64,000 nt of DNA from Chloroflexota bacterium (GCA_005889275.1 VBFI01000044.1:22509-86508), one strand, 5' to 3'. Counted from the first letter of the stretch, positions 26,272 to 60,311 are shown. The notes: generated from the letters alone by a model not told the origin. A program made the numbers and translations.

Positions 26272-26324
26272 GCGCGAGAGTGTGGGGCACGCCAGGCGAG
26301 CGACCGGTTGCAGATTTGCGCGGC

Positions 26325-27995
26325 TCAGCTCCCCCGACGATGGATCACCCGGCCGCCCAGGATCGTCATGTCGACCTCCGTCGAGGCGATGTCTCGGGCG
26401 CCCAGCGGCAGGATGTCGCGCGAGAGGACCACGAGGTCGGCGAGCTTGCCCAGGGCGATGCTTCCCCTTTGGTCCTCCTCGTACGACGCGTACGCCGGAT
26501 TGATCGTGTACGCGGCGATGGCCTCCTCGACCGTGAGCGCCTCTTCGGGATGCCATGCACGCTCGACCGCGAGCGCGATGTTCTGCAGTGGCGCGAGCGG
26601 GGTGGCGCGCTGCTCGTTGAAGCTCCCGGGCCAGTCCGACACCAGGTCGAGCCGCGCGCCGGCGTCGCGGAGCGAGCGCCAGGCGTGCGCGGTCTTCGCG
26701 CGCTCCGGTCCCAGGCGCCGCTCGACCGTCCGCATGTCGTTCACGAGGTGCTGCGGGGTGACGTCGACGATGAGCCCGAGCTTCCCGATGCGCTCGATCT
26801 CGCGAGCGCTCGGGTACCAGGCGTGGATCACGCGGAAGCGGCGGTCACGCGGCGGATTGGCGCGGATCGCGGCCTCGTACCAGTCGAGAAGGAGCCGGTG
26901 CGCCTTGTCGCCGATGGTGTGCACGACCGGATCGAAGCCGGCGGCGTCCGCGCCCGCGATGTCCGCGGCCATCGTCTCCTCGTCGACGAAACGGAAGGTG
27001 AACGAACCGGCGTAGTCGGGCTCATTCGCGTACGGGGCGTCCATGAGGAATCCATCGATGAACGCCTTGAGGCCGCCGAAGCGGATGCGGCCCTCGTCCG
27101 TCCGCGGGCGAACGCCACATGCGAGCACGTCTCGCCACACCGCGAGCGTCAGGAACGCGTAGACACGCATCGTGAGCCGGCCCCGCCGCTGCAGCTCGCG
27201 GAAGAGCGCGAGGTCGGTCGCGCTCCGTTCGACGTCGGTGTGGAACAGGTGCCGTCGCGAAACCTCGTCGAGCCGGGTCACGTCGTGGATCCCGGTGATC
27301 CCCGCGCGGCGCAGCTCCTCGAGCGCCGACTCCGCCCCCGCGACCATGAGCTCGAGATTCGCCGGCGGCATGAGCTCGGCCATCCGCTCCCCCGCACGCC
27401 CGAGGAGGATGCCAGTCGGCATACCGTCGGCATCGCGCCGGATCTCGCCGCCCCGAGGGTCAGGTGCGCGCCGGTCGAGACGGGCGCGGGCGAGCGCGAG
27501 CGAGTTCGCGACGTAGGCGCCGTCGACGCGGCGCAGCAGGATCGGGTGATCGGGGGCCACGGCATCGAGGCGCCGTCGGTCGATCGGCATCGGCGCGGGC
27601 CGTGGCGCCCCTTTCTCGTCGGCGGCCCACGCCGCGGCGGCATCGAGATCGCCGCCCGTGAGCCACAGGCCTTTCGGTACCCGACGCGCCGACGTCGCGA
27701 TCTTCTCGAGCACCGCGTCGGCGTCGCGCTCCTCGTAGAGGCCGACGCGGAAGGTCCAAGCCGCGGCGTTGCCGAAGTGCGTGTGCGCGTCGATGAACCC
27801 GGGAAGCGCCAGGCGGCCGGCCAGCTCGACGACCTCGGTCCGCGGTCCGGCGAGGGGCCGGAGATCCTCGTCGGTACCCACGGCGACGATGCGCTCGCCG
27901 CGGACCGCCACCGCCCGCGCCTCGGGCCGTCGTGGGTCGACGGTCCATACGCGGCCTCCGCGCAGGATGAGGTCGGCCGGTTCGGCCGTGCTCAG
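26325..27995 (-). CDS. amidohydrolase-family (Amidohydro_3, metal-dependent TIM-barrel) hydrolase
   Basis: PGFIDAHTHF, HTIGDKA and C-terminal ALGKLADLVVL motifs. The conserved N-terminus (AEPADLILRGGRVWTVDP) extends upstream of the first GTG (27911). The likely start is CTG 27995, overlapping the upstream stop (CTGA). Confidence 0.75.
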   Translation of the reverse strand: MSTAEPADLILRGGRVWTVDPRRPEARAVAVRGERIVAVGTDEDLRPLAGPRTEVVELAGRLALPGFIDAHTHFGNAAAWTFRVGLYEERDADAVLEKIATSARRVPKGLWLTGGDLDAAAAWAADEKGAPRPAPMPIDRRRLDAVAPDHPILLRRVDGAYVANSLALARARLDRRAPDPRGGEIRRDADGMPTGILLGRAGERMAELMPPANLELMVAGAESALEELRRAGITGIHDVTRLDEVSRRHLFHTDVERSATDLALFRELQRRGRLTMRVYAFLTLAVWRDVLACGVRPRTDEGRIRFGGLKAFIDGFLMDAPYANEPDYAGSFTFRFVDEETMAADIAGADAAGFDPVVHTIGDKAHRLLLDWYEAAIRANPPRDRRFRVIHAWYPSAREIERIGKLGLIVDVTPQHLVNDMRTVERRLGPERAKTAHAWRSLRDAGARLDLVSDWPGSFNEQRATPLAPLQNIALAVERAWHPEEALTVEEAIAAYTINPAYASYEEDQRGSIALGKLADLVVLSRDILPLGARDIASTEVDMTILGGRVIHRRGS

Positions 27996-28222
27996 CCGGC
28001 GCGGCGCCGCGCGTTGCGGCCGGCGCGATAGAGGTTCGCGAGCACGAGCGCCAGCACGAGCGCGAGCAGCACCCAGCCGGCGTTCTCGCTCAGGACGTCG
28101 GTGCCCGAGTGCGCGATGACCCAGGTGAGCGCGAGCGCCAGGATCGCTCCGATCGCGAGCTGCCCGTCGTCGACGAGGAGCCCGTAGGTGTTGTCCCAGA
28201 TCGCGCGGAAGACGCTAGACAT
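27992..28222 (-). CDS. small two-TM membrane protein (76 aa)
   Basis: MSSVFRAIWDNTYGLLVDDGQLAIGAILALALTWVIAH...AGWVLLALVLALVLANLY is low in Arg and hydrophobic. It overlaps the upstream membrane gene by 8 nt. Confidence 0.55.
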   Translation of the reverse strand: MSSVFRAIWDNTYGLLVDDGQLAIGAILALALTWVIAHSGTDVLSENAGWVLLALVLALVLANLYRAGRNARRRAG

Positions 28223-28982
28223 TCCGCGCCTCCACCCGCGCGCCCTGCGGGAGCAGGCCGCCCAGCATGCGGACCGCGATCCAGCTCGCGAGGAGGAACG
28301 ACCCGAGGATCACCGGGATCGAGGCCGCGTCACCGGGCCATGCCGCGCCGACGCCCTCACCGAACCAGAAGATCCCGAAGCTCGAGAGCATCGCGCCGAC
28401 GCCGAACTTCATCCAGTTCTCGGGCACCGCGGTCAGGGGCGCGCGGAGCGCCGAGGCGAGCGCGATGACGATGATCCCCGCGGCGATCGCGCCCAGGATC
28501 GCGGCGTTCATCGCGCCGACGCCTTTCGCGCCGAACGCGATGACGATGAACGCGACCTCGGTCCCTTCGAGGAGGACCGCCTTGTAGGCCACGATCATCC
28601 CGATCCAGTCCCAGCGGTTTCGGCGAAGCCCCTGCGCCCTGAGCTCAGCGACCTCGCGGCGGTAGATCTCCTCCTCGTCGTGGACGGCGACGATCCCGGC
28701 GAAACGGAGGACGGCCTTGCGGAGCCAGCGCAGACCGAAGAGGAGAAGGAGCGTCCCGACGATGCCGAGGAGGAGGTGCTCCGGGACGACCGTGACGAGC
28801 GCCACCCCGAGGGTCGCGACGATGAGCGCGAGCGTGAGCGTGGCGAGCGCGGTGCCGACGAGCGGCGCGCGCCAGCCCCTGGTGATGCCCACCGCGAGCA
28901 CGATCGTCGTCGCCTCGACGAACTCGACCGCGCTCGCCAGGAACGACGGGGTCGCGGCGATCGCGACCGTCGCAAGGTCCAT
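28215..28982 (-). CDS. polytopic membrane protein with an internal two-fold repeat (possible cation transporter)
   Basis: 255 aa and about 7 TM segments. Two repeat units begin AVEFVEATTIVLAVG and LLEGTEVAFIVIAFG. ATG 28982 lies immediately after the SBP stop (TAGATG). Confidence 0.6.
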   Translation of the reverse strand: MDLATVAIAATPSFLASAVEFVEATTIVLAVGITRGWRAPLVGTALATLTLALIVATLGVALVTVVPEHLLLGIVGTLLLLFGLRWLRKAVLRFAGIVAVHDEEEIYRREVAELRAQGLRRNRWDWIGMIVAYKAVLLEGTEVAFIVIAFGAKGVGAMNAAILGAIAAGIIVIALASALRAPLTAVPENWMKFGVGAMLSSFGIFWFGEGVGAAWPGDAASIPVILGSFLLASWIAVRMLGGLLPQGARVEARNV

Positions 28983-30623
28983 CTAACCCTCCACCCAGGC
29001 GTCGTTCATGGCCGTGCCGGTGAGACCGTCCGGTCCGGGTTTGAAGTCGTGCACCTTCGTCGCCATCGCTTCGACGCGGACTTGGCTCATGACCCCGACG
29101 AACGGCAGGATCTCCATGACCCGCTTCTGCGCATCGACGTACGTTTGCTTGCGCTCCGGCGTGTTCAGATCCTGTCCCTGTCCCTTTACGAGGAGCGCAT
29201 CGAGCTGCGGGTCGTTCGTGTTCGAGAAGTTGCTGCCCGAGACACGGTTCGCCGAGTGATAGCAGACCCGCAGGACGCCGTCCGGGTCGATGCTCGTCGA
29301 CGACGTCGCCGCCATGTTGTGCTTGTACGCGCGGACGTAGTCGAGATACGGGCCGCGCTCCATCACCTGGACCTTGAGATCGATCCCGACGTCGCGAAGC
29401 TGCGACTGCATCGCCTGTGCGATCTCGGTCCAGGGGCTGCGGAAGGTCGCGAGCGCGATCTCGAGATTCTGGCCGTTCTTCTGCCGGATCGGACCCGAGC
29501 CCTGCTTCCATCCGGCGTCGTCGAGGAGTTTCTTCGCCTTCGCCGGGTCGAACGTGAAGGTCTTCTCGATCGTGTCGTCGCGCGCCCAGACGCCTTCCGA
29601 GAGCGGACCGACCGACACGTGGTGGACGCCGAAGAAGATCTTTTCGACGATCGACTTCCGGTCGACGGCCCAGTTCGCCGCCTCGCGGACCGCGTGGTCG
29701 TCGGTCGGCGCCCGCGCGACGTTCATGCTGAACCCGAGCGTGTGGCTCGCGCGCGGCGACATCACGAACCGGAAGCGCTTGTCGTCCTTGAGCCGCGCGT
29801 AGTCCGCCTCGGGGATCTCGTCGATGAAGAGGTTCTCGCCGCTCTCGAGCGTCGCGACGCGCGTGGAGGGCTCGGTGATCGCGCGGAACTTCAGCTGGTC
29901 GAGGTACGGCGCGGCGCGGTTCTTGAAGAGCTCGTTCCCCCAGTTGTAGTCGGGGTAGGCCTTCAGCGTGACGACGCCGTCCGGCGACCTGCCCGCGAAC
30001 ATGAACGGGCCCGAGCCCACCGGCTCCGTCGCGACGTCGCCGGGCTTGAGCGTCGCGAGGTACTTCGGCGAGAGGACGCCGAAGAAGTACCGCCAGATCT
30101 GGAGCATGAACGCGGCATAGGGCTGCTTGAAGCTGAAGACGACCGTCTTGTCATCCGGTGTGGTGATCTTGTCGATCGGGCCGACCAGCGAAACGACGGC
30201 GCCCGCCTTCGTCTTCGGATCGAGGATCCGTTCGAACGAGCCTTTGACGGCCGCCGAGGTGAGCGCGCTGCCGTCGTGGAATTTCACCCCGTCTCGGAGC
30301 GTGAAGGTGAACGTCTTCGACGAGTCGGTGATCGTCCACTTCGCGGCAAGCGCCGGGTAGAACTTCTGGTCGCTGTCCATGGTGATGAGCGTGTCGAGGA
30401 TGTTCTGGGCGATCTCGCCGGCCGCGGCGCCGGTCGTGAGCGCGGGATCGATCACGTCGATCTTGTCCCACTGCCCCCAGGTGACCGTCCCGCCCTTCGT
30501 CGGCTTCAGCGACGCCGATGCGGTCGGCGCGGTGGCCGCCGGTGCGCACGCGAAGATCGCGACACTCGCCGCCGCAAGGGCCGAGCGCCGCAGGAACTCG
30601 CGACGGTACATCTGCTCGTTCAT
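28983..30623 (-). CDS. ABC-type substrate-binding protein, family 5 (DppA/OppA-like), Tat signal
   Basis: MNEQMYRREFLRRSALAAASVAIFA is a twin-arginine signal, followed by an SBP_bac_5 fold. ATG 30623 overlaps the aminotransferase stop (ATGA). GGGGGAG Shine-Dalgarno upstream. Confidence 0.85.
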   Translation of the reverse strand: MNEQMYRREFLRRSALAAASVAIFACAPAATAPTASASLKPTKGGTVTWGQWDKIDVIDPALTTGAAAGEIAQNILDTLITMDSDQKFYPALAAKWTITDSSKTFTFTLRDGVKFHDGSALTSAAVKGSFERILDPKTKAGAVVSLVGPIDKITTPDDKTVVFSFKQPYAAFMLQIWRYFFGVLSPKYLATLKPGDVATEPVGSGPFMFAGRSPDGVVTLKAYPDYNWGNELFKNRAAPYLDQLKFRAITEPSTRVATLESGENLFIDEIPEADYARLKDDKRFRFVMSPRASHTLGFSMNVARAPTDDHAVREAANWAVDRKSIVEKIFFGVHHVSVGPLSEGVWARDDTIEKTFTFDPAKAKKLLDDAGWKQGSGPIRQKNGQNLEIALATFRSPWTEIAQAMQSQLRDVGIDLKVQVMERGPYLDYVRAYKHNMAATSSTSIDPDGVLRVCYHSANRVSGSNFSNTNDPQLDALLVKGQGQDLNTPERKQTYVDAQKRVMEILPFVGVMSQVRVEAMATKVHDFKPGPDGLTGTAMNDAWVEG

Positions 30624-31981
30624 CGTGAGGCTCCCCCACCCGTGGTCGTGATCGCGAGCGACGCGTCGAGGATGTCCAGCCCTTCGTCGAGCTGCGCGTC
30701 CGAGATCGTGAGCGGCACGAGCGTGCGGATGACGTTCGAGTAGAGGCCTGCGCGCAGCAGGATCAGCCCGCGCTCGCAGGCCGTACGGATGGTCGCGTCT
30801 ACGGTTGCCGGGTCGGGCTTCTTCGTGGTGCGGTCGCGGACGAGCTCGATCGCGCGCATCGCGCCGAGCCCGCGGACGTCGCCGATCACCTCGTGCCGCG
30901 TCGCCATCTCGGCGAAGCGCTCGCCGATGACGCCGCCGATCCGCGACGCCCGCTCCAGCAGCCCGTCGCGCTCGATGATCTCGATCGTCTTGATCGCCGC
31001 GGCGCAGGCCACCGGGTGCCCGCCGAACGTGCTGCCGAGCGATCCGGGGCCGAGCGCGTCGAAGAGCTCGGCGCGGCCGGTGACCGCCCCGATGGGGAAA
31101 CCCGCGCCGAGCGACTTCGAGGTGATGAGAAGGTCGGGCGTCACGCCCGAGTGCTCGATCGCGAACATCTTGCCCGTGCGCCCCATGCCGGTCTGGATCT
31201 CGTCGGCGATGAAGAGGATGCCGTGGCGGCGGCAGATGGCCGCGATCCGCTTCAGGAATCGCGCCGGCGGGACGACGAACCCTCCCTCGCCCTGGACCGG
31301 CTCGACGATCACGGCGGCGACGTGCTCGGGCGCGAGGTTCGTCTCGAGGACCTGCTCGAACAGGCGCACGTGGAGCTCGCCGAGCTCATCGTCGCCGACC
31401 TCGGCGATCGGCCGGTAGGGATACGGGTAGGGCACGTGCGCGACGTTCGGGGTCGTGGAGCGCATGAACGCCATCCGCGAGCTCTTCGTCTTGCCGGTCG
31501 CGGTCATCGCCGTGTACGTGCGTCCGTGGAAGCTGTTCTGGAAGGCGATGACCCACTCGCGGCCGGTCGCGACGCGGGCGATCTTGATCGCGTTCTCGAC
31601 CGCTTCGGCGCCACTGTTCGCGAAGACGCTCTTCGTCGCGACCGCGGTGCCCCCGCTCTTCGGGTAGATCCGGTCGAGCTCCTGCGCGAGCCGCACGTAC
31701 GGCTCGTAGGTCACGACCTGCGCCGACACGTGCGCGTATCGCTCGAGCTGCTCGCGCACCGCTCCGATGACCTCGGGATGCTGATGCCCGAGGTTCAGCG
31801 CGCCGATGCCCGCGACGAAGTCGAGATAGCGGCGGCCCTCCGGGTCGAACAGCTCGGCGCCGGACGCCCTGGCCACGACGACCGGGGTCCCGACGTGCAG
31901 CCCCTTCGGGACGAATCGCTCCCGCAGCTCCCGGACCTCCGCCGTGCCGGATCCACTCCGAGTTTCGATGAGCGTGCTCAC
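30620..31981 (-). CDS. gabT: class-III PLP aminotransferase (4-aminobutyrate/omega-aminotransferase-like)
   Basis: FDPEGRRYLDF...NSGAEAVENAIKIAR...EPVQGEGGF...DEIQTGMGRTGKMFA...TSKSLGAGFP matches GabT. GTG 31981 overlaps the RpiR stop (GTGA). Confidence 0.85.
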   Translation of the reverse strand: MSTLIETRSGSGTAEVRELRERFVPKGLHVGTPVVVARASGAELFDPEGRRYLDFVAGIGALNLGHQHPEVIGAVREQLERYAHVSAQVVTYEPYVRLAQELDRIYPKSGGTAVATKSVFANSGAEAVENAIKIARVATGREWVIAFQNSFHGRTYTAMTATGKTKSSRMAFMRSTTPNVAHVPYPYPYRPIAEVGDDELGELHVRLFEQVLETNLAPEHVAAVIVEPVQGEGGFVVPPARFLKRIAAICRRHGILFIADEIQTGMGRTGKMFAIEHSGVTPDLLITSKSLGAGFPIGAVTGRAELFDALGPGSLGSTFGGHPVACAAAIKTIEIIERDGLLERASRIGGVIGERFAEMATRHEVIGDVRGLGAMRAIELVRDRTTKKPDPATVDATIRTACERGLILLRAGLYSNVIRTLVPLTISDAQLDEGLDILDASLAITTTGGGASR

Positions 31982-32901
31982 GCCACTTCCCCTTTCGTCC
32001 GCTCGTCGATCCGAGCGCGCAATTCCTGAAGCTCCTCGGCGGCGGCCAGCGCGCCGGCGCGATCGCGACGGGCCAGCCCGAAGAGAAGCGCGTCCAGGAC
32101 GACGACCGTGATCGCCGACAGATGGAACATGCCGCCCCCCGCCCGGCGCGCCGAGAGCGCCACCGTGAACTGGCCCGCGAGCGCGAGACCGAGCGTGTCG
32201 GTGATGAGGAGCGAAGGAAGCGCGAGCTCCCGGGCACGCTCCAGCGTGAGCTCCGCCTCGGGGCTCGAGCGGTCGTAGGCCAGGACGACGACGACGTCGC
32301 CGCGGCGCATGTCGATGAGCACGTCCGCGAGCGCCTGGCCGCGCGCACCGACGGAGAGCGCCGAGCGCCGCATGCGCCGGAGCCGGGCCGCGAAGTATTC
32401 GGCGAGCGGCGCGTTCGGGCCGAGTCCCTGCACGACGACTCGCTGCGCGCCGGCCATGAGCTCGAGCGCTCGCGCGAAATCGGTCGCCCGGAGGGTCTCG
32501 CGCGCGTCATGGAGCAGCTGCAGCTCGGTGGCGAGGACGTGCTCCAGCACCGCGGCTGGATCATCGCCCAGGTCCTCAAGGCTGCGGCCCAGGCGGAGCG
32601 TCGGCGTGGCCCGGGTGCGCAGCGCCTCACGCAGCTCGGCCTTGAGCGCGGGCAGTCCGGTGTAGCCGAGCGACTGCGCCGCGCGGATGACCGTCGCATC
32701 GCTCATGTCCAGCCGCGCGGCGATCTCGACCGCCGAGAGGAACATGACCTCCTCGCGATGCTGCGCGAAGAAGGTGGCGACGCGATCCTCGGCCGGACTG
32801 AGGCTCGCGCGCGCCGCGGCGATCCGCTCCTCGAGCGATGGCTCGGCGACCTCCGCCCGGCGGGCATGCCCGTGGCCCTGCGCGGCCTCAGTAGCGTTCA
32901 C
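31978..32901 (-). CDS. RpiR/MurR-family transcriptional regulator (HTH_6 plus SIS domain)
   Basis: LSPAEDRVATFFAQH...VEIAARLDMSDATVIRAAQSLGYTG is the HTH. The SIS region is QRVVVQGLGPNAPLAEYFAARL. GTG 32901. The upstream part of the tracked 702-aa ORF is junk. Confidence 0.75.
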   Translation of the reverse strand: MNATEAAQGHGHARRAEVAEPSLEERIAAARASLSPAEDRVATFFAQHREEVMFLSAVEIAARLDMSDATVIRAAQSLGYTGLPALKAELREALRTRATPTLRLGRSLEDLGDDPAAVLEHVLATELQLLHDARETLRATDFARALELMAGAQRVVVQGLGPNAPLAEYFAARLRRMRRSALSVGARGQALADVLIDMRRGDVVVVLAYDRSSPEAELTLERARELALPSLLITDTLGLALAGQFTVALSARRAGGGMFHLSAITVVVLDALLFGLARRDRAGALAAAEELQELRARIDERTKGEVA

Positions 32902-32964
32902 TTCAGCACCGAGTGCAGACTGTAGTGTATGCTGCGAGACGATTTCAACTGGGGCGGTGAGGCG

Positions 32965-34119
32965 ATGGCAGCAGCGGAGCTCACCACGATCGAGATCAGC
33001 GGCTCGCGCGGTGAGCTGGGTCGGCAGCATGGCGAGGCCGCCCGGAGCCAGATCGGCGAGTCGATCGGCTACTACCGCGAGTCGTTCAAACGCATCACCG
33101 GCCTGGAATGGGCCGAGATCCGCCGGAACGCCCCGCGCTGGGTGCAGCCCATCGACGCGTACCTGCCGGGGATCACCGACGAGATCCGCGGTATCGCCGA
33201 AGGCGCGGGCGTCGACTTCGCCGAGATCCTCGCGCTCAACGCGCGCGGCGAGCTGTCGACGCACAACCCCTTCGCCGAAGCGGCCGAGGAGGGCTGCTCC
33301 TCGTACGCGATCTTGCCCGAGGCCTCCGGCGACGGACACGTGTACTGCGGCCAGAACTGGGACTGGCGCTGCGAGACCTTCGGGACGGTGATCCTCCTGC
33401 GCATCGTTCAGCCGGGCCGGCCGACCATCATCATGCAGACAGAAGCCGGTCAGGTCGGGCGTCACGGCGCGAACTCGGCGGGCATCGCGCTCAACGCGAA
33501 CGGCCTCGGTGCCCGCTGGGGCAAGGGCATCGGCGTTCCCCAGCCGATCATCCGCCGCAGGATCCTGGAGGCGCCGGAGATGCAGACCGCGCTCCGCGCC
33601 GTCTTCGACTCCCGCCAGTCGCTCTCCACGAACCTCCTGGTGACCCACCGCGACGGCTTCGCCATCGATCTCGAGACGACGCCTGACCGCCATGGCTGGA
33701 TGTACCCGACGGCCGGCCTCCTCGTGCATACCAATCACTTCATCGCGTTCGTGCCCGAGCAGATCGCGGCGACCTATCGGCCCTTCTCGGTGAATTCGCT
33801 CTGGCGCCTTCCCCGGCTCACCGAGGGGCTGCGCGCGGCGAAGAGGCCCGGCGACAGCGCGGAGGTCCGTGGCGCGATCGGGGCCGCCCTCCGCGATCAC
33901 TTCGGCTATCCGAACTCGGTCTGCAAGCACGGCGACGAGGCATCTCAGGGGACGGACCTCAATCAGACGATCGCCTCGAGCATCGTCGATCTCACGACCG
34001 GCGAGTATTGGCTGGCGGCGGGGAATCCGTGCGAGGGCGAATATCGGAAGCTGCCCTGGAACATCTACGACGAAGCGGGAGCGCATCCGCGACAGGTGGC
34101 CACTGCCGGTCGGGCGTGA
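32965..34119 (+). CDS. peptidase C45 / acyl-CoA:6-aminopenicillanic-acid acyltransferase-family Ntn-hydrolase
   Basis: The autoproteolytic Gly-Cys site is EEGCSSYAIL...CGQNWDW. ATG 32965 with GGTGAGG Shine-Dalgarno. Divergent from the RpiR gene. Confidence 0.7.
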   Translation: MAAAELTTIEISGSRGELGRQHGEAARSQIGESIGYYRESFKRITGLEWAEIRRNAPRWVQPIDAYLPGITDEIRGIAEGAGVDFAEILALNARGELSTHNPFAEAAEEGCSSYAILPEASGDGHVYCGQNWDWRCETFGTVILLRIVQPGRPTIIMQTEAGQVGRHGANSAGIALNANGLGARWGKGIGVPQPIIRRRILEAPEMQTALRAVFDSRQSLSTNLLVTHRDGFAIDLETTPDRHGWMYPTAGLLVHTNHFIAFVPEQIAATYRPFSVNSLWRLPRLTEGLRAAKRPGDSAEVRGAIGAALRDHFGYPNSVCKHGDEASQGTDLNQTIASSIVDLTTGEYWLAAGNPCEGEYRKLPWNIYDEAGAHPRQVATAGRA

Positions 34120-35072
34120 TGCGCGAAGCGACGCTCCGCGTCTACTCGGGACGCAACCGTCCGGACCTGACGCCCATATACCGGCTTTTCGAGCGCCTCA
34201 CGGACACGAGGGTCGAGGTGGAGATGATCTACCACCTCGACGTCGAGCGACGACTCGCCGAGGAGCGCCACGATCCGATCGCGGACGTGCTCGTCACGAA
34301 CAGCCAGGTCGCGGTCGAGGCGGTCCGCGGATCGGGACTCTTCGAGCCGTACGCGCCGGAGGTCGCGCGCGGGTTCGACGAATGGCTCCGCGCGCCCGAC
34401 CACTCATGGCTCTCGTTCGCGGCGTGGCCGCGGACCGCGATGATCAATCGCCGCCTTCTTCCCGACCCCGCGAGCTGGCCACGGACGCTCGAGGAGCTCG
34501 CGGCCGAGCGCTTTCGCGGGAAGATCTCGATGGCAACGACGAACGAGGAGACGACGGTCTCGCAGTGGAGCGCGATCCGCGCCGCCAGAGGCGACGACTT
34601 CGCCTGGCACCTTCTGGACCGGCTCCGCGCGAACGGCCTCCGCACCTACGGATCGAACAAGGCGACGCGGGAAGCGCTCGTGCGCGAGGGAAACGCGATC
34701 GCCCTCGTGAACTCGTCGAACTACCACGTGTTCCTAATGGAGGGGAACCCCGTCGGCGAGGCCTGGCTCGATCAGGAGCCCGGAGGGCTCGGAACGCACG
34801 TCGAGGCGCACGTGGTCGCCGTGGTGAAGGGCGCCCGTCACGTTGAGGCCGCGCGGTCCTTCGTCGATTTCCTGCTCTCGGCCGATACGCAGACCCTCCT
34901 CGCGCGGATGTTCGGCGAGACGCCGGTGAACCCCGCGGCGATCACCGGATCGGTCCGGCCGCTCGCGCAGATCAGACGCACCGCGGTCGCCCTCGCGAAG
35001 ATCACTGAGCTCCGGGACAGCACGCGCGCGCAGCTGGCCAAGCGGGGCTTCGCCCCACCGGCCGGCGACTAG
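34119..35072 (+). CDS. SBP-fold protein (Fe3+/thiamine-type periplasmic-binding-protein family) without a signal peptide
   Basis: MREATLRVYSGRNRPDLTPIYRLFERLT...VLVTNSQVAVEAV is an SBP_bac_1/8-like fold. No N-terminal hydrophobic signal is present. ATG 34119 overlaps the C45 stop. Confidence 0.65.
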   Translation: MREATLRVYSGRNRPDLTPIYRLFERLTDTRVEVEMIYHLDVERRLAEERHDPIADVLVTNSQVAVEAVRGSGLFEPYAPEVARGFDEWLRAPDHSWLSFAAWPRTAMINRRLLPDPASWPRTLEELAAERFRGKISMATTNEETTVSQWSAIRAARGDDFAWHLLDRLRANGLRTYGSNKATREALVREGNAIALVNSSNYHVFLMEGNPVGEAWLDQEPGGLGTHVEAHVVAVVKGARHVEAARSFVDFLLSADTQTLLARMFGETPVNPAAITGSVRPLAQIRRTAVALAKITELRDSTRAQLAKRGFAPPAGD

Positions 35073-35080
35073 GACGGACC

Positions 35081-36343
35081 GTGCTCGACTGGCTCAGCGT
35101 CGACGGCAAGAAGCTTCTCGCGACGCGGGTCCTGCGGACATTCGCGTACGGCTACCTCGCGGTGGTCCTCGGTCTCTTCCTCGACAAGCTCGGGATGTCC
35201 CCGATCGAGATCGGCCTCGTCTTCACCGCGGCTATCGCCGGCTCTGCGGTGATGACGGTCTTCTGGTCGCTCATCGCCGACCGTTACGGACGGCGGCGCA
35301 CCGTCGCGACCATGGCGGTGCTCATGGCGATCGGCGGTCTCATCTTCGCGGGGACGAGCAGCTTCTGGCTCCTCCTCGTCGGCGCGTTCACCGGGACGAT
35401 CAGCGCGACGAGCTCCGAGGTCGGCGTGTTCCAGACCGTCGAGCAGGCCGTGCTCCCGCAGACCGCGCCGAACGAGCGCCGCACCTGGCTCTTCTCGATC
35501 TACAACATGGCGGCGAACTTCGCGGGCGCGTTCGGCTCGCTCGCGGCGGCCTCGGTCGGATTCTTCGCGGCCCACGGTCTCGCGGGCGCCGATGCGTATC
35601 GCCCGCTTTTCGTCTTGTACGCGCTCATCGGCCTCGCCAACCTCGCGATCTTCCTTACGCTTTCGGACCGGGTCGAGCTCGCGCACGTCGAGGGGCAGCG
35701 CCGCTTCCTCGGTGTCCACCGCTCCGCCGGGACCGTCGCGAAGCTCTCGGCGCTCTTCGGGCTCGACGCGTTCGCCGGTGGCTTCGTCGTCCAGTCGGTC
35801 GTCGCGTACTGGTTCTACCTGCGCTGGGGACTCGATCCCGCGGCGCTCGCCGGGATCTTCTTCTGGGTCGGGATCCTGTCGGGGTTGTCGCTCCTCGCCG
35901 CGGGCTGGCTCGCCGAGCGCATCGGTCTCCTCAACACGATGGTGTTCACCCACCTCCCGTCGCAGTTCGCACTCCTGCTCATCCCTCTCGCGCCGACGGC
36001 GGGGCTCGCGGTGGCGCTCTACCTGGCGCGCATGAGCGTCTCTCAGATGGACGTGCCGACCCGGCAGTCCTACACGATGGCGGTGGTCGACCCCGACGAG
36101 CGCACCGCCACCGCGGGCATCACGAACGTTGCCCGGACGAGCGCCACCGCGATCGCGCCGACGTTCGCGGGCATGGCCTTCAGCGCGGCGGCCCTCGGTC
36201 TTCCGTTCTTCATCTCGGCTGCGCTCAAGATCGTGTACGACGTCGCCATCTACGCGACCTTCCGGAACGTGCATCCTCCCGAGGAGCGTGCCCGCCGCGA
36301 ATCGCGGCAGGTCCCGCCGACGCCGGAGACGACCGCGACGTGA
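35081..36343 (+). CDS. MFS transporter
   Basis: 420 aa, 12 TM helices, with IADRYGRRRTV between TM2 and TM3. GTG 35081 with AGGA upstream. Confidence 0.85.
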   Translation: MLDWLSVDGKKLLATRVLRTFAYGYLAVVLGLFLDKLGMSPIEIGLVFTAAIAGSAVMTVFWSLIADRYGRRRTVATMAVLMAIGGLIFAGTSSFWLLLVGAFTGTISATSSEVGVFQTVEQAVLPQTAPNERRTWLFSIYNMAANFAGAFGSLAAASVGFFAAHGLAGADAYRPLFVLYALIGLANLAIFLTLSDRVELAHVEGQRRFLGVHRSAGTVAKLSALFGLDAFAGGFVVQSVVAYWFYLRWGLDPAALAGIFFWVGILSGLSLLAAGWLAERIGLLNTMVFTHLPSQFALLLIPLAPTAGLAVALYLARMSVSQMDVPTRQSYTMAVVDPDERTATAGITNVARTSATAIAPTFAGMAFSAAALGLPFFISAALKIVYDVAIYATFRNVHPPEERARRESRQVPPTPETTAT

Positions 36344-36384
36344 GCGCGCCAGCGGGTAGGCTCTAGCCCGCCGAGAGGGGAAGC

Positions 36385-37329
36385 GTGGCCAGGTACGTCG
36401 CGCAAAGGCTCGCCGAGGCGGTCCCGGTCCTGCTGCTCGCGTCCGTCCTCGTCTTCTCGATCCTGCATCTGGTTCCCGGCGATCCGATCGACGCCATGAT
36501 CGGCGCCGCATCGTTCGGCGTGGGCGATCGGACCGCCCAGGAGCAGCTCGTCGCGCAGCTCCGCGAGCAGCTCGGCCTGAACGATCCGCTGCCGCTTCAG
36601 TACCTGCGCTGGCTGTGGAACGCGACGCATCTCGACCTCGGCGAGTCGTTCATCCGCCACCAGCCGGTGATGAAGCTCATCGGCGACCGGCTCCCGAGCA
36701 CGGTCGAGCTGGCGGGCGCGGCCCTCGTGCTGTCGGTGAGTCTCGGCGTCGTGCTCGGCCTCCTCGCCGCGGTGAAGCGCAACTCGCCGATCGATCGCCT
36801 GGTCATGCTCTTCTCGCTCGGCGGCGTCTCGATCCCGAGCTTCTTCTTCGCGATCCTGTTGATCCTGCTGTTCTCGGTCACGCTCGGCCTCGTTCCCGCG
36901 ACCGGCTCGGGCAGCCTCGACCGGCTCATCCTTCCGGCCCTCGTCCTCGGCTACGAGGGCACGGGCCTCATCGCGCGGCTCACGCGCGCGTCGCTCCTCG
37001 ACGTGCTCGGGCGCGAGTACGTGCGGACGGCGCACGCGAAGGGGCTCGCGCCGCGCAGCGTGCTTCTCGGTCACGCGATGCGCAACGCGCTCATCCCAGT
37101 GGTGACGATCGTCGGTCTCCAGCTCGGCCGCCTCCTCGCCGGCAGCGTGATCGTCGAGACGATCTTCGCGCGGCAGGGGATCGGGCAGCTCGCGATCGAC
37201 TCGATCATCGCGAAGGACTACCCGGTGGTACAGGGCGTGATCCTGCTCACCGCGACGACCTACGTGATCGCCAATCTTCTCGTCGACGTGTCGTATGGCT
37301 TCATCAACCCCAGGATCCGCGCCGCCTAG
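36385..37329 (+). CDS. dppB: ABC transporter permease (DppB/OppB-like)
   Basis: MARYVAQRLAEAVPVLLLASVLVFSILHLVPGDPIDAM...EYVRTAHAKGL...AMRNALIPVVT. GTG 36385 with GAGAGGGGA upstream. Confidence 0.85.
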   Translation: MARYVAQRLAEAVPVLLLASVLVFSILHLVPGDPIDAMIGAASFGVGDRTAQEQLVAQLREQLGLNDPLPLQYLRWLWNATHLDLGESFIRHQPVMKLIGDRLPSTVELAGAALVLSVSLGVVLGLLAAVKRNSPIDRLVMLFSLGGVSIPSFFFAILLILLFSVTLGLVPATGSGSLDRLILPALVLGYEGTGLIARLTRASLLDVLGREYVRTAHAKGLAPRSVLLGHAMRNALIPVVTIVGLQLGRLLAGSVIVETIFARQGIGQLAIDSIIAKDYPVVQGVILLTATTYVIANLLVDVSYGFINPRIRAA

Positions 37330-37346
37330 CGTCGGCCGTCCTGCCC

Positions 37347-38093
37347 GTGGCCATCGCCATCGACCCGTTCAAGCAGAGCCTCAAGGATTCGCTGCTCGCG
37401 CCCGGCACGCAGGGTCATCCGCTCGGCACGGACCAGTTCGGCCGCGACGTCTTGCTCCGGCTCATCGACGGCGGGCGCGCGTCGCTCTCGATCGGCTTCG
37501 CCGCCGTCGCGATCGCGATGGTGTCGGGAGGCCTCGTGGGGCTCGTCGCCGGGATGCGCGGCGGCTGGGTCGATCGGGCACTCATGCGGCTGGTCGACGT
37601 GGAGCTCGCGTTCCCCGGGATCCTCCTCGCGCTCATCATCGTGACCATCCTCGGCCCCGGCCTCGAGAAGGTCGCGATCGCCGTCGGGGTCGGCGGCATG
37701 CCGCGGTTCGCGCGCATCGTCCGCGGCTCGGTCCTCTCGACAAAGCACGAGCTGTTCATCGAGGCGGCGCGGAGCGTCGGGGCGAGCGAGCGGCGTGTCG
37801 CGTTTGCGCACGTCATGCCGCAGGTGCTCGGGCCGGTCATCACCATCGCGACGTTCGGACTCGCCACGGCGATCTTCTCGATCGCGGCGCTGTCGTTCCT
37901 CGGGCTGGGCGCGCAGCCCCCCGCCGCGGAGTGGGGCCTCATGCTGTCCGACGCGCGCCGCTACCTGCGGATCGCGTGGTGGCTCGCCGTGTTCCCTGGG
38001 ATCACCGTCACCTCGGTCGTGCTCGCCGCGAATCTCCTCGGCGACGCGGTACGCGACGCGCTGGATCCCCGTCTCTTCAGCAAGGCGGACTGA
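37347..38093 (+). CDS. dppC: ABC transporter permease (DppC/OppC-like), N-terminally truncated (TM1 absent)
   Basis: ...IAIDPFKQSLKDSLLAPGTQGHPLGTDQFGRDVL...EAARSVGASE. The first in-frame start after the dppB stop is GTG 37347. The upstream frame has no TM1. No ATPase genes follow. Confidence 0.6.
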   Translation: MAIAIDPFKQSLKDSLLAPGTQGHPLGTDQFGRDVLLRLIDGGRASLSIGFAAVAIAMVSGGLVGLVAGMRGGWVDRALMRLVDVELAFPGILLALIIVTILGPGLEKVAIAVGVGGMPRFARIVRGSVLSTKHELFIEAARSVGASERRVAFAHVMPQVLGPVITIATFGLATAIFSIAALSFLGLGAQPPAAEWGLMLSDARRYLRIAWWLAVFPGITVTSVVLAANLLGDAVRDALDPRLFSKAD

Positions 38094-38129
38094 GCTCCGC
38101 ACGGTCAGCGGAGCGCCGTCGGCTTTCGG

Positions 38130-38384
38130 CTACCGTCCGAGCGCGCGGCGGGCGGCCTGGGCCGAGCTCATGCGTTTGCTCTTACCCGGCGCGAGGGCCA
38201 CTCGGCGATGAACGTTGGACACCGCGTCACGCGGCAGATCGTGAATGAACGCGGCGGTGTTGTCCTTGAACAGCGGGATCTCGGGGACACGCTCCCAGCG
38301 CATGACCGCCGCGGCGAGATCCTTGGCCAGCGCCTTTCGGTTCTTGAACGTTCCTTCGGTGGCGTACACGTCGATCATCGGCAT
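38130..38384 (-). CDS. tautomerase-family protein (4-oxalocrotonate tautomerase-like, Pro1)
   Basis: MPMIDVYATEGTFKNRKALAKDLAAAVMRWERVPE. ATG 38384 makes Pro the catalytic residue 2. AGGAG lies 6 nt upstream. The tracked start at 38420 is too far upstream. Confidence 0.65.
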   Translation of the reverse strand: MPMIDVYATEGTFKNRKALAKDLAAAVMRWERVPEIPLFKDNTAAFIHDLPRDAVSNVHRRVALAPGKSKRMSSAQAARRALGR

Positions 38385-38404
38385 CGGCTGTCTCCTGGGT
38401 GGAA

Positions 38405-38457
38405 ATATGACGACCGTCATATCGTCGGCCGCACCTTAGCCTATGTCGATCGTCATA
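38405..38457. promoter_or_regulatory. two palindromic operator-like sites between the divergent tautomerase and TetR genes
   Basis: ATATGACG-ac-CGTCATAT (38405-38422; perfect 8-bp arms) and TATGtCGATCGtCATA (38442-38457). Both share a TATGACG/CGTCATA half-site. Confidence 0.5.
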
Positions 38458-38475
38458 GTCAAGGGGGTGCGCCGG

Positions 38476-39054
38476 ATGGGCAAGGAGAGCCGGGCCAGCA
38501 TGGTGCGGAGCGCCGCGTCGCTGATCCGTACCCGCGGCGTGAGCGCGACGTCGTTCTCGGACGTGCTGGCGGACAGTGGAGCGCCGCGCGGATCGATCTA
38601 CCACCACTTTCCGGATGGAAAGGCGCAGCTCGCCGCGGACGCGATCCGCTGGACGTCGGACCGGGTGCTCGCACACCAACGCGAGTGCCCCGCGACCACG
38701 GCGGCAGGGGTGCTGAACTGCTTCATCGACATGTGGCGGCAGGTCGTGGTGTCCTCGCGCGGCACCGCCGGATGCGTCGTGGCGGGCGTCGCGATCGACA
38801 CGGTCGCCGGCGACAAGGCCTTGATCGACGTCGTCCGCGCGACGTTCCGGTCCTGGGTCGACTTGCTGGCCAAGCAGCTCGCGGCCGTCGGTGTCCCACG
38901 TGAGCGAGCACGGGCCATCGCGGTCGCGACGGTGGCCGGCATGGAGGGCGCGCTCATCCTGTGCCGCGCCGAAGGTCGGAGCCGGCCGCTCGAAACCGTG
39001 GCTGCCGAGCTCATGCGTTTGCTCCCGCCCGACGCGAGGGCCACTCGGCGATGA
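38476..39054 (+). CDS. TetR/AcrR-family transcriptional regulator
   Basis: [44 protein letters not shown] is the TetR_N HTH. ATG 38476 with AAGGGGG upstream. The tracked start at 38443 overlaps the operator. Confidence 0.8.
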
Positions 39055-39233
39055 TCTCCGCGCTCGTCGGACCCGCGCTCCCCGATGGTCGCACGGCTCG
39101 GGGCGAGGGCGAGCCACGCGCGCGACGATCGACGGCGCGCGAATGGGCCTCCTGGATCCACGGGGCCGAGTTCGTCGGTGCAGACGTTCCTCGACCGGCA
39201 CGACCTCGGCGGGCCGGGTGGACAATCCCCCTC

Positions 39234-40883
39234 GTGAGCATCGCGACCCGCGTCGTCCGCGCCCCGCGAGGGGCGGCGCTGGAGTGCCGGGCCTGGCCGC
39301 AGGAGGCCGCGTTCCGCATGATCCAGAACAATCTCGACCCCGAGGTCGCCGAGAAACCGGATGAGCTCATCGTCTACGGCGGCACCGGGCGCGCGGCGCG
39401 CTCGTGGCAGGCGTTCGACCGGATCCTCGAGACGCTCCGGCGCCTGCGGAACGACGAGACGCTGCTCGTCCAGTCGGGAAAGCCCGTCGGCGTCTTCCGC
39501 ACGCACGAGTGGGCGCCGCGCGTGCTCATCGCGAACGCCCTCATCGTCCCGCGATGGGCGACATGGGACGAGTTCCGCCGTCTCGAGGACGCCGGTCTGA
39601 CGATGTACGGGCAGATGACCGCGGGGTCGTGGATCTACATCGGCACGCAAGGGATCCTCCAGGGCACCTACGAGACTTTCGCGGCGATCGCGCGGCGCCA
39701 TTTCGCGGGGACGCTCGCCGGCAAGCTCGCGCTCACGGCGGGACTCGGCGGGATGGGCGGCGCGCAGCCGATGGCGATCACCATGAACGAGGGCACCGCG
39801 CTCGTCGTCGAGGTCGATCCGCTGCGCGCGCGGCGCCGGCTCGCGCAGGGGTTCCTGGACGAGATCGTGACCTCGCTCGACGACGCGCTCGAACGTGCGG
39901 AGCGGTATCGGACCGAACGGCGAGCGCGTTCGGTCGGCCTCGTGGCGAACGCCGCGGACGTCCTTCCCGAGATCGTTCGCCGAGGCACGCGCATCGACGT
40001 GGTGACCGATCAGACGAGCGCGCACGATCCCCTCGACGGCTACGTCCCCGCGGGCGTCGCCGATCCCGCCGCGCTGCGCGAGCGCGACCCGGAAGAGTAC
40101 GTGCGACGCTCCCGTGCCTCGATCGCGCGTCACTGCGAGGCGATCGTCGCGCTCGCGCGCCGCGGTGCGGTCGCGGTCGATTACGGGAACAACCTCCGCG
40201 GTGAGGCGAAGGAGGCCGGTTTCGCCGACGCGTTCAGCTATCCCGGCTTCGTGCCCGAGTACATCCGGCCGCTCTTCGCCGAAGGCCGCGGGCCGTTCCG
40301 CTGGGTCGCGCTCTCCGGTGACCCCGAGGACATCCGCCGCACCGACCGGCTCGTGCTCGAGCTCTTTCCCGAAGACTTGACCCTGTCCCGGTGGATCCGC
40401 CTCGCCGGCGAGCGGGTCCCGTTTCAGGGACTCCCCGCGCGGGTCTGCTGGCTCGGATACGGCGAGCGCGCCGAGTTCGGCGAGCGGATCGACGAGCTCG
40501 TCGCGAGCGGCGAGCTCACGGCCCCGATCGTCATCGGACGCGACCATCTCGACTCCGGGTCGGTCGCGTCGCCATTCCGTGAGACCGAGAACATGCGCGA
40601 CGGGAGCGACGCGATCGCCGACTGGCCGATCCTGAACGCGCTCGTGAACACGGCGGCGGGCGCGACGTGGGTGTCGGTCCATCACGGCGGCGGCGTCGGG
40701 ATCGGCAACTCGATCCACGCGGGTATGGTCGCGGTCGCCGACGGCACGCCGCTCGGACGCGAAAAGCTCCGGCGCGTGCTCACGACCGATCCGGGCACCG
40801 GAGTCATGCGGCACGCCGACGCGGGGTATCCGGACGCGATCGACTTCGCGCGGAAGAACGGGATCGACCTGCCCAGCACCTAG
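39234..40883 (+). CDS. hutU: urocanate hydratase
   Basis: [32 protein letters not shown]...[12 protein letters not shown]...[17 protein letters not shown]...GNNLR...[12 protein letters not shown]...VMRHADAGY is near-complete HutU homology. GTG 39234, 549 aa. Confidence 0.9.
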
Positions 40884-60296: not shown

Positions 60297-60311
60297 GGCG
60301 CCGCCTAGCGC

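Follow-up and report, generated by a model that had tools for sequence, protein, structure and literature searches.

A signal-less FbpA/FutA-fold binding protein encoded next to an MFS permease in a putatively RpiR-controlled gene island of Limnocylindria

Introduction

Solute-binding proteins (SBPs) are nearly always read as extracellular capture devices. Some SBP-fold proteins are known from the cytoplasm: AmiC (which acts with AmiR), NasS (which acts with NasT) and the C-terminal domain of NrtC, which gates a nitrate ATP-binding cassette (ABC) transporter, make up an established class of cytoplasmic sensors. Thiaminase I (related to the thiamine-binding TbpA) and THI5/NMT1 are binding-protein scaffolds turned enzyme. 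Here we describe a gene island in a 64,000-nucleotide stretch of DNA from a Chloroflexota bacterium (GCA_005889275.1, VBFI01000044.1:22509-86508; hereafter the window, ~70% G+C), in which an SBP homologue of the FbpA/FutA fold without an export signal is encoded next to a permease of the major facilitator superfamily (MFS).

AfuA was annotated as an iron transporter but binds hexose phosphates (PMC4546632). The island also encodes a protein of the C45 family of N-terminal nucleophile (Ntn) hydrolases, in which isopenicillin-N acyltransferase (IAT) self-cleaves at Gly102-Cys103 and insect Tan at Gly121-Cys122 (PMC10194958). A full-text literature search found no description of a cytoplasmic FbpA-type SBP or of an SBP-MFS pair, and no bacterial C45 enzyme that has been characterised. 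Among the uncharacterised clusters of Limnocylindria, an abundant uncultured soil lineage, the island is one of the better conserved. Below, L numbers denote loci and P numbers proteins.

Results

The SBP-like protein lacks an export signal

An open reading frame (ORF) listing combined with profile searches placed four genes at 31978-36343, rpiR on the minus strand followed by C45, SBP-like and MFS genes on the plus strand. The two at the centre of this report are:

34119..35072, plus strand: signal-less FbpA/FutA-fold SBP homologue of 317 residues, predicted to be cytoplasmic (Pfam SBP_bac_6/11/8/1, AlphaFold2 (AF2) model, Foldseek)
35081..36343, plus strand: MFS permease of 420 residues (PF07690, E=6e-32, 111 bits), starting 8 nt past the SBP-like stop

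The SBP-like protein matched SBP_bac_6 (E=3.4e-17) and, by phmmer, FutA1 (E=5e-18). Structure prediction, which a first-pass annotation of the same DNA had proposed as a check, gave an AF2 model with a pLDDT of 87.9, and Foldseek aligned this model with HitA, FutA1 and FbpA at template modelling (TM) scores of 0.83-0.85 and 18-25% identity. The protein thus carries both the class-II SBP fold and the family profile.

To judge signal peptides, the maximum 12-residue Kyte-Doolittle score within the first 60 residues was used. The SBP-like protein reached 0.36 (0.02 with an upstream extension), against 2.3-3.2 for three exported lipoprotein SBPs of the same window, and its N-terminus lies only 8 residues ahead of the first beta-strand of the mature SBP domain. 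An alternative upstream start with a signal peptide, which the first-pass annotation had named as an observation that would speak against its reading, was looked for and rejected: the sole in-frame extension (to 34008) is hydrophilic and lies within the C45 gene. None of the 120 best homologues (58-99% identity) had an export signal; the YSGR motif begins at residue 8-10 in 115 of them, and the other five are truncated or carry short hydrophilic extensions. At loci with the MFS-SBP order, there is no gap between the MFS stop and the SBP start (8001/8001 in L001; a 4-nt overlap in L033), and hence no room for a leader. The signal-less state is therefore a family trait, and the claim of the first-pass annotation that this protein has no signal peptide and does not serve periplasmic capture agrees with these data: without an export signal, it is no capture protein of the classical kind.

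The family is narrow: of 1.84 billion cluster representatives scanned, 23 reached E<=1e-30. P0246, P0248 and P0250, which come next in identity (41-33%), are also signal-less, and P0250 is encoded amid genes for cytoplasmic enzymes (a thiamine pyrophosphate (TPP) enzyme, an isopropylmalate synthase-like protein, an HpcH aldolase and Ldh_2). P0241 (51% identity; L010 664-1848) carries a twin-arginine translocation (Tat) signal, a Pro-rich linker and the same motif set, and its gene lies between two genes for TonB-dependent receptors on a short contig. Relatives further removed carry the NHYYY iron motif and signals of the ordinary type. The SBP-like copies of Rhizobium and Planctomycetota have no signal, whereas the SBP5-type protein of the Rhizobium operon has a Tat signal. 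L012 (25-2002) encodes two signal-less paralogues in tandem, which share 52% and 40% identity with the window protein; next come an ORF with weak likeness to CHAP and a fragment of a luciferase-like monooxygenase.

The binding cleft has lost the iron ligands and is strictly conserved

Cleft residues were assigned by sequence alignment to FbpA of H. influenzae (hFbpA), not from model coordinates, with the following result:

hFbpA His9, iron ligand: Asn13 in the window
hFbpA Glu57, iron ligand: Asn61 in the window
hFbpA Tyr195, iron ligand: Ser200 in the window
hFbpA Tyr196, iron ligand: Asn201 in the window
hFbpA Asn175, synergistic-anion site: Asn180 in the window (kept)
hFbpA Asn193, synergistic-anion site: Asn198 in the window (kept)
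hFbpA Arg101, synergistic-anion site: Trp103 in the window
hFbpA Ser139-Gly140-Ala141, synergistic-anion site: Asn142-Glu143-Thr145 in the window

H9, E57, Y195 and Y196 are the residues that we take to be the iron ligands of FbpA; PDB entries for the mutants H9A/Q, E57A, Y195A, Y196A, N175L and N193L mark these positions as studied site residues. Asn61, Ser200 and Asn201 are invariant in the family and Asn13 is near-invariant, and the FutA1 tyrosines align with R14, E144, N201 and the variable position 202. Since the four FbpA ligands and the FutA tyrosines are all substituted, ferric-iron binding was rejected. The label "iron/thiamine-type" given in the first-pass annotation is therefore too strong; members of the family are likewise routinely annotated "iron(III) transport system substrate-binding protein".

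The canonical ligand loops hold family-specific invariants (R12, R14, T60-N61-S62, W103-P104-R105, E143, T145, N180, N198, E229 and H231), suggesting that a specific small-molecule site is maintained, the ligand of which is polar and probably at least partly anionic. The best NCBIfam matches were PhnS (aminoethylphosphonate-binding) models at E ~2e-14, far under the cut-off, and the metal-citrate binder MctA was among the structural neighbours. In long relatives the fusion partner is a ferric-reductase, cupredoxin or propeller domain and never an MFS permease. A sulfonate or phosphonate substrate was considered and found to be unsupported: the TPP enzyme encoded 3' of DppC in L002-L004 is acetolactate-synthase-like, not Xsc or phosphonopyruvate decarboxylase, and the enzymes encoded in L014 yield no clear pathway.

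An orthologous MFS permease is the conserved partner

A genome scan with one genome per species (185,579 species) returned 22 loci: 18 from Chloroflexota, one on a probably mis-binned 'Acidiferrales' contig, one from Rhizobium puerariae and two from Planctomycetota. A plasmid search added R. leguminosarum OyaliB p1. The SBP-like genes of the two Rhizobium strains lie at L034 8095-9123 (R. puerariae TBRC 4938, NZ_JBHMAA010000045) and L037 9992-11020 (OyaliB p1). When the window proteins were mapped onto all loci, an orthologous MFS gene immediately adjoined the SBP-like gene, in either order, in 18 of the 21 informative species-level loci, and in the loci for which both gene boundaries had been read, the spacing varied between a 4-nt overlap and 8 nt. 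Identity of the MFS permease to its counterparts is 55% in Rhizobium and 37% in Planctomycetales, and its gene invariably shares an operon with the SBP-like gene. For every gene of the region the closest homologues came from soil or freshwater metagenomes and from Candidatus Limnocylindria or Chloroflexota metagenome-assembled genomes, and the arrangement recurs in ~30 independent contigs, indicating that it is not due to chance. Absence of the SBP-like gene from orthologous clusters, which the first-pass annotation had named as a possible counter-finding, was not what we saw: few members of the cluster are as well conserved as this gene.

The layout in Limnocylindria is rpiR and, divergently, C45, the SBP-like and MFS genes, DppB and DppC. 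The C45-SBP-MFS order occurs in L002, L005 and L015-L023 and the C45-MFS-SBP order in about one-third of the loci (L001, L007 and L027-L032). Between the two orders the SBP-like proteins are ~60% identical, against 80-90% for all neighbours, suggesting that the SBP-like gene was exchanged, or evolves rapidly, without losing its position next to the MFS gene. The first-pass annotation had placed the SBP-like gene "sandwiched" between an amidase and an exporter; as a conserved feature this does not hold, the conserved partners being the MFS permease and the Dpp-type importer.

The Rhizobium cluster reads DppF-DppD-rpiR and, divergently, SBP-like (342 residues, signal-less), SBP5 (Tat), DppB, DppC and MFS, with DppD and DppF directly behind rpiR (L034 5369-7298; L037 7266-9240); a metallo-beta-lactamase (MBL)-fold hydrolase is also present. 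In the Planctomycetales locus L035, a FecA-like TonB-dependent receptor gene diverges from the SBP-like and MFS genes. In L036, an SBP5-DppC-DppB-receptor operon diverges from the SBP-like gene, and a fused MFS/spermidine-synthase takes the place of the MFS permease. RpiR was not seen at the planctomycete SBP-like and MFS loci in the sequence available. The conserved core is thus the signal-less SBP-like protein and the MFS permease, with a Dpp-type importer and RpiR.

Domains of the 3-keto-disaccharide-hydrolase type adjoin the module in two phyla (L037 1484-5817, in R. leguminosarum OyaliB p1, and L005 12125-12793), the Rhizobium domain being fused to a GMC oxidoreductase beside an alpha-amylase-family gene. 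A substrate of the glycoside type, possibly indicated by these domains, would be in keeping with an RpiR regulator. Paralogous RpiR/C45 clusters without the SBP-like and MFS genes were found in L006 (3859-12244), with OoxA/OoxB-like FAD oxidases, SBP5, DppBC and TldD/PmbA, and in L009 (5992-9128), with two tandem C45 genes.

The MFS permease belongs to an uncharacterised subfamily

The MFS permease contains motif A (ADRYGRR), multiple hydrophobic spans in a crude scan and a conserved C-terminal FRNxxPPEE tail. Its homologues are named only "MFS transporter", and PDB searches returned marginal matches and no close solved MFS structure. The antiporter motif C (G-x3-GP-x2-GG in transmembrane segment (TM) 5) is missing, as the protein contains no GP dipeptide, which makes an exporter reading less likely. 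The first-pass annotation correctly placed an MFS gene after the SBP-like gene; its term "exporter" was an assumption, and the planctomycete module lies beside a FecA-like import receptor. Given the additional presence of an ABC importer, efflux or recycling is an equally possible role of the MFS permease.

The C45 protein is a predicted self-cleaving Ntn-hydrolase

The gene that precedes the SBP-like gene is:

32965..34119, plus strand: C45 Ntn-hydrolase/acyltransferase proenzyme of 384 residues (NF040521, PF03417, IAT alignment, AF2 model)

It scored 231.2 bits against NF040521 'C45_proenzyme' (cut-off 85) and 61.7 bits against PF03417 (E=1.1e-16, cut-off 23.2). Its EEGC sequence aligned with the DGC (Gly102-Cys103) of P. 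chrysogenum IAT (IAT structure 2x1d, E=4.7e-29), placing the predicted self-cleavage site at Gly110/Cys111 (Cys codon 33295-33297), and Cys111 is invariant across 21 homologues. The AF2 model is of moderate confidence (pLDDT 68.8, pTM 0.75), and its best PDB matches were IAT (TM score 0.73-0.78), then acid ceramidase, NAAA and bile-salt hydrolases, which is consistent with the Ntn-hydrolase alpha-beta-beta-alpha fold in the modelled structure. The family and the Gly-Cys site within EEGC given in the first-pass annotation are borne out by these scores and alignments, and so is the TGATG overlap that it described: the C45 TGA (34117-34119) and the SBP-like ATG (34119-34121) share the A at 34119.

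Gene callers start C45 at ATG 32929, which lies within a conserved operator-like box (box B, below) and, in relatives such as L005, does not share the C45 frame; we therefore assigned the start to ATG 32965. No C45 gene was seen at the Rhizobium or planctomycete loci in the sequence available, and C45 appears as a Limnocylindria-specific addition to the conserved core.

Carnosine or a beta-alanyl-amide was considered as a substrate, on the basis of the likeness of C45 to Tan, a GabT-like aminotransferase in the island and the nearby hutH/hutU. The idea is weakened by the position of the hut genes outside the conserved core and by the lack of C45 at the Rhizobium and planctomycete loci.

Paired operator-like boxes between rpiR and C45

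The regulator gene and the boxes in the control region are:

31978..32901, minus strand: RpiR-family regulator of 307 residues with a GTG start (Pfam HTH_6, E=2.2e-12; SIS, E=3.4e-10)
32891..32904, no strand: operator-like box A, GTAGCGTTCACTTC, covering the rpiR start codon
32922..32935, no strand: operator-like box B, GTAGTGTATGCTGC, containing the spurious ATG 32929 and overlapping a -10-like hexamer

A 307-residue rpiR gene is likewise called on the 99%-identical contig L038. The protein has the features of the RpiR/MurR family, an N-terminal HTH_6 and a C-terminal SIS domain, and conserved operator-like GTAGYGT boxes at its own promoter that it is predicted to bind. Between the rpiR GTG (32901) and the C45 ATG (32965) lies a 63-bp spacer, the shared control region noted in the first-pass annotation, which holds for these two starts. 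Exact GTAGYGTWYRCTKC matches in the window occur in boxes A and B only, and the -10-like hexamer under box B belongs to a promoter-like site directed at rpiR. Comparison of the rpiR-C45 spacer across 20 related loci revealed paired boxes, 31-32 bp apart, in 12 loci and a single exact copy in eight more. The residues encoded under box A differ among loci (NAT or TTT) while the DNA is constant, indicating a constraint at the DNA level. The same half-site is found as tGTAGCGT-N16-ACGCTACa in the rpiR-operon spacer of two Rhizobium genomes, and regulator and operator thus appear to travel with the module across phyla. Judged from sequence, both operons are probably under RpiR control through the two conserved putative operator boxes.

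The island extends beyond the MFS gene and comprises ~12 kb

DppB begins 41 bp after the MFS gene (36343) and the stretch from 31900 to 38500 showed no terminator-like site, indicating that the operon runs on. The first-pass annotation had recognised three genes; their content and order stand, and the operon continues to five (C45, signal-less SBP-like, MFS, DppB and DppC). The divergent operon holds rpiR, a GabT-like aminotransferase, SBP5, an OFeT-like permease and Amidohydro_3. The two-operon island proposed there is thus confirmed, at ~12 kb (26325-38093) instead of roughly 10 kb, with the Amidohydro_3 gene at one end and DppC at the other. Its further members are:

36385..37329, plus strand: DppB-type ABC permease (BPD_transp_1_N and BPD_transp_1), kept 3' of the SBP/MFS pair in ~25 loci
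37295..38093, plus strand: DppC-type ABC permease, disrupted, first in-frame start GTG 37347 (tblastn, three-frame translation)
30620..31981, minus strand: class-III aminotransferase (GabT-like), first gene after rpiR (PF00202, E=4e-125)
28983..30623, minus strand: SBP5 (NikA/Opp-type) lipoprotein (PF00496, E=8.7e-86) with a Tat signal (YRREFLRR...AIFAC) and lipobox
27992..28982, minus strand: OFeT_1-like permease (28215-28982; PF16955, E=1.4e-10) and an overlapping membrane ORF of 76 residues (27992-28222)
26325..27911, minus strand: Amidohydro_3 metal-dependent amidohydrolase at the far end of the island (PF07969, E=1.1e-77), conserved in the cluster

In a DNA alignment with L023, L017 and L030, DppC showed a deletion of 158 nt that takes out the Arg-rich N-terminus and TM1, leaving the conserved start (ATG 37295, MASSTPGSAPPS) out of frame with the body of the gene. 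The independent, 99%-identical contig L038 ends exactly at the deletion junction (37295-37350), and the gap reflects a deletion in this strain or else a fault of the assembly.

The aminotransferase scored 495.9 bits against TIGR00700, just below the cut-off of 506.65. The SBP5 signal reached a hydrophobicity of 2.32; its best NCBIfam match was the nickel protein NikA, below the cut-off, and SBP5 is presumed to be the receptor of the DppBC permeases. No ABC ATPase gene was found within the island or in any Limnocylindria version of it. The OFeT_1-like permease has two ExxE motifs (EFVE and EGTE) and overlaps the 76-residue ORF by 8 nt. This pair recurs in L001, L002, L005, L007 and L033, and in L033 it adjoins the MFS and SBP-like genes without the rest of the island.

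A histidine ammonia-lyase-type gene (18258-19490, plus strand) and a urocanase gene (38961-40883, plus strand) flank the island; a urocanase gene also lies shortly 3' of DppC in L005, L016, L018, L023 and L030. Between DppC and urocanase are an ORF of 96 residues without a family match (38130-38420) and a TetR gene (38443-39054). A gene for a secreted beta-propeller (YNCE/lactonase-like) lipoprotein (25096-26556, minus strand) overlaps the 3' end of the Amidohydro_3 ORF call, and P0253 (L039), a relative that bears a signal, also has a propeller gene of this kind nearby. A second Dpp-like system (58555-61925, minus strand) consists of an SBP5 lipoprotein gene (60312-61925) and permease ORFs that look fragmented (58555-59734).

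Discussion

We tentatively propose, with a probability of roughly 0.4, that the locus is an RpiR-controlled island for the uptake and breakdown of a small amide-linked polar or anionic compound, in which the cytoplasmic binding protein is the partner of the MFS permease. The compound may be peptide-like, a conjugate or a chelator. It would be imported by SBP5 and DppBC, with ATPases encoded elsewhere in Limnocylindria and within the cluster in Rhizobium. C45 would activate itself by cleavage at Gly110/Cys111 and cut amide bonds together with the amidohydrolase, and the aminotransferase would strip an omega-amino group. The SBP-fold protein would remain in the cytoplasm and, with no FbpA-like Fe(III) binding, hold the imported ligand or a fragment of it in its conserved cleft. 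Together with the adjacent MFS permease it may form a two-gene module that traps a ligand admitted by the permease or loads the permease for efflux or recycling.

Several observations weigh against this proposal. DppC is disrupted in this window, and the cleft residues on which the ligand class is based come from alignment to FbpA and not from coordinates of the model. RpiR regulators usually sense sugar phosphates, not an obvious match for a peptide-like or chelate substrate. With C45 missing from the Rhizobium and planctomycete sequence available, a direct functional link between C45 and the SBP-like protein is weak. The link to the MFS permease is strong but not absolute, given one exception, L024, in which the SBP-like gene lies at the far end of the opposite operon and neither MFS nor DppBC is found within 12 kb. 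Finally, P0241, the closest relative outside the clade, is Tat-exported, suggesting that the same pocket can also work outside the cytoplasm.

P0241 bears on several other explanations as well. If the SBP-fold protein were an enzyme, a scaffold that has come to catalyse a reaction of the imported compound or of an intermediate of the pathway, as in the precedents of thiaminase I and THI5, its predicted cytoplasmic location and its translational coupling to C45 by TGATG would be accounted for. The distant signal-less P0250 is encoded in the middle of an all-enzyme operon without a transporter, the Rhizobium cluster offers a single other candidate enzyme, the MBL-fold hydrolase, and the invariant His39, His231, Glu143, Glu229 and Asp218 could be catalytic. 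We nevertheless consider an enzyme doubtful: the family has no invariant Cys, the nucleophile of thiaminase I, its tightest genomic partner is a permease, and P0241, with 51% identity and the same motifs, is exported by Tat between TonB-dependent receptors, a setting typical of capture proteins. That setting would suit uptake of a metal chelate (a metallophore or xenosiderophore) with iron release and recycling, in place of nutrient catabolism, in which the NikA-like SBP5 and DppBC would import the chelate, the amidases dismantle it, the SBP-like protein receive the chelate or a polycarboxylate fragment, and the MFS permease re-export it; Cnt, in which an SBP5 ABC importer works alongside an MFS exporter, would be a parallel. 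FecA-like receptors diverge from the SBP-like and MFS genes at two planctomycete loci (NF041676, 315 bits; TIGR01783, 200 bits), the best NCBIfam matches of SBP5 are nickel/NikA-type in both Chloroflexota and Rhizobium, both the island and L033 contain an OFeT_1 iron-permease-like gene, and there are cupredoxin genes in the vicinity. P0253, the nearest relative with a signal, adjoins a DtxR-type iron repressor, distant relatives are fused to ferric-reductase or cupredoxin domains, and MctA is a structural neighbour. This explanation is about as doubtful as the enzymatic one, given that the tyrosinate, His and Glu iron ligands are all lost, control is by RpiR and not by Fur or DtxR, the NCBIfam scores are all far below equivalog cut-offs and no chelator-biosynthesis genes were seen, and that TonB-dependent receptors and SBP5 importers also carry non-metal substrates.

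An explanation that concerns the coupling itself is an "inside-out" secondary transporter dependent on a binding protein, in which the cytoplasmic SBP-fold protein would dock on the inner face of the MFS permease, perhaps at the FRNxxPPEE tail. There it would either draw the ligand inward by trapping it with high affinity or hand a chelator-like compound to the permease for efflux or recycling. We regard this mechanism as unlikely. Quite unlikely is a cytoplasmic ligand sensor that regulates RpiR or the transporters. Such sensors are an established class, the Rhizobium SBP-like gene is the first gene after the rpiR-controlled promoter, and stoichiometric co-translation with a transporter would suit trans-inhibition; however, neither the window nor the loci examined contained a gene for an ANTAR protein or another partner regulator, RpiR carries a SIS sensor domain of its own, and the planctomycete loci keep the SBP-like and MFS genes without RpiR in the sequence available. 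Export after all, with the SBP-like protein acting as an extracytoplasmic receptor, for example by Tat "hitch-hiking" on SBP5, appears very improbable to us. The SBP5 proteins of the window and of Rhizobium do have twin-arginine signals, P0241 is itself a Tat substrate, which shows the fold to be Tat-compatible, and the SBP-like and SBP5 genes are adjacent in Rhizobium. We know of no precedent for SBP hitch-hiking, however; in Limnocylindria SBP5 is encoded in the other operon and the SBP-like gene is coupled to C45 or MFS, a monoderm would require a lipid anchor that the protein does not have, and P0250 lies amid cytoplasmic enzymes with no exported partner.

Comparison with known systems

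FbpA, FutA and HitA share with the SBP-like protein the class-II fold and the anion-site residues Asn175 and Asn193. They are periplasmic receptors of FbpABC-type ABC importers, whereas the SBP-like protein has no signal and no iron ligands and carries Trp103 in place of R101. No FbpB-type permease or FbpC ATPase gene lies next to its gene, the neighbours being the MFS permease and the DppB/DppC-type permeases with SBP5 as receptor. By profile and fold (4r6y, 4r73, 6wce) the protein falls into the same branch as AfuA (hexose-phosphate), PhnS (2-aminoethylphosphonate) and P5PA (pyridoxal phosphate). The AfuA cleft is Arg/Lys-rich with acidic parts. These three proteins are periplasmic and serve dedicated ABC importers; the SBP-like protein is signal-less, and all its scores are far under equivalog cut-offs.

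AmiC, NasS and the C-terminal domain of NrtC likewise have an SBP fold that works in the cytoplasm and lacks a signal peptide. Their SBP classes differ (LivJ-like and NrtA-like), and their AmiR/NasT ANTAR partner or ABC-ATPase fusion is absent here. The Cnt system for staphylopine resembles the island in combining an SBP5 (NikA/CntA-like) importer of the Dpp/Opp type with an MFS permease, with a TonB-dependent receptor also in diderm relatives. The island differs from it in having no CntKLM-type biosynthesis genes, in its predicted regulation by RpiR and in the extra cytoplasmic SBP-fold protein and amidases, and SBP5 scored 127 bits against the CntA model (cut-off 800). IAT (PenDE) and Tan, an N-beta-alanyl-amine hydrolase, have the C45 profile, the Gly-Cys self-cleavage site and the Ntn fold in common with the window C45. 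Unlike IAT, to which it is only 27% identical, the window protein is bacterial and encoded in a catabolic-looking operon rich in transporters, with no sign of a beta-lactam or acyl-CoA link.

The tripartite ATP-independent periplasmic (TRAP) and tripartite tricarboxylate (TTT) transporters share with the SBP-like and MFS pair the genetic coupling of a binding protein to a secondary, non-ABC permease. Their SBP is extracytoplasmic and their membrane parts are DctQM or TctAB, whereas here a signal-less SBP is paired with an MFS permease, which places the pair outside both families. An inside-out SBP-MFS mechanism, if true, would be a mirror image of how ABC, TRAP and TTT systems work and is not known to have been described for an MFS permease. 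At the least, a systematic mis-annotation as "iron(III)" SBP would be corrected. The culturable Rhizobium strains carry the core module, which makes it testable at the bench. Cytoplasmic SBP-fold proteins as such are already known from AmiC, NasS, the NrtC domain and THI5. The element for which the literature searched gave no precedent is a signal-less clade of the FbpA family that has lost its export signal and iron ligands, has kept a strictly conserved cleft and is locked to an MFS permease across three phyla, a pairing that, if functional, would represent a new coupling of a binding protein to a secondary transporter.

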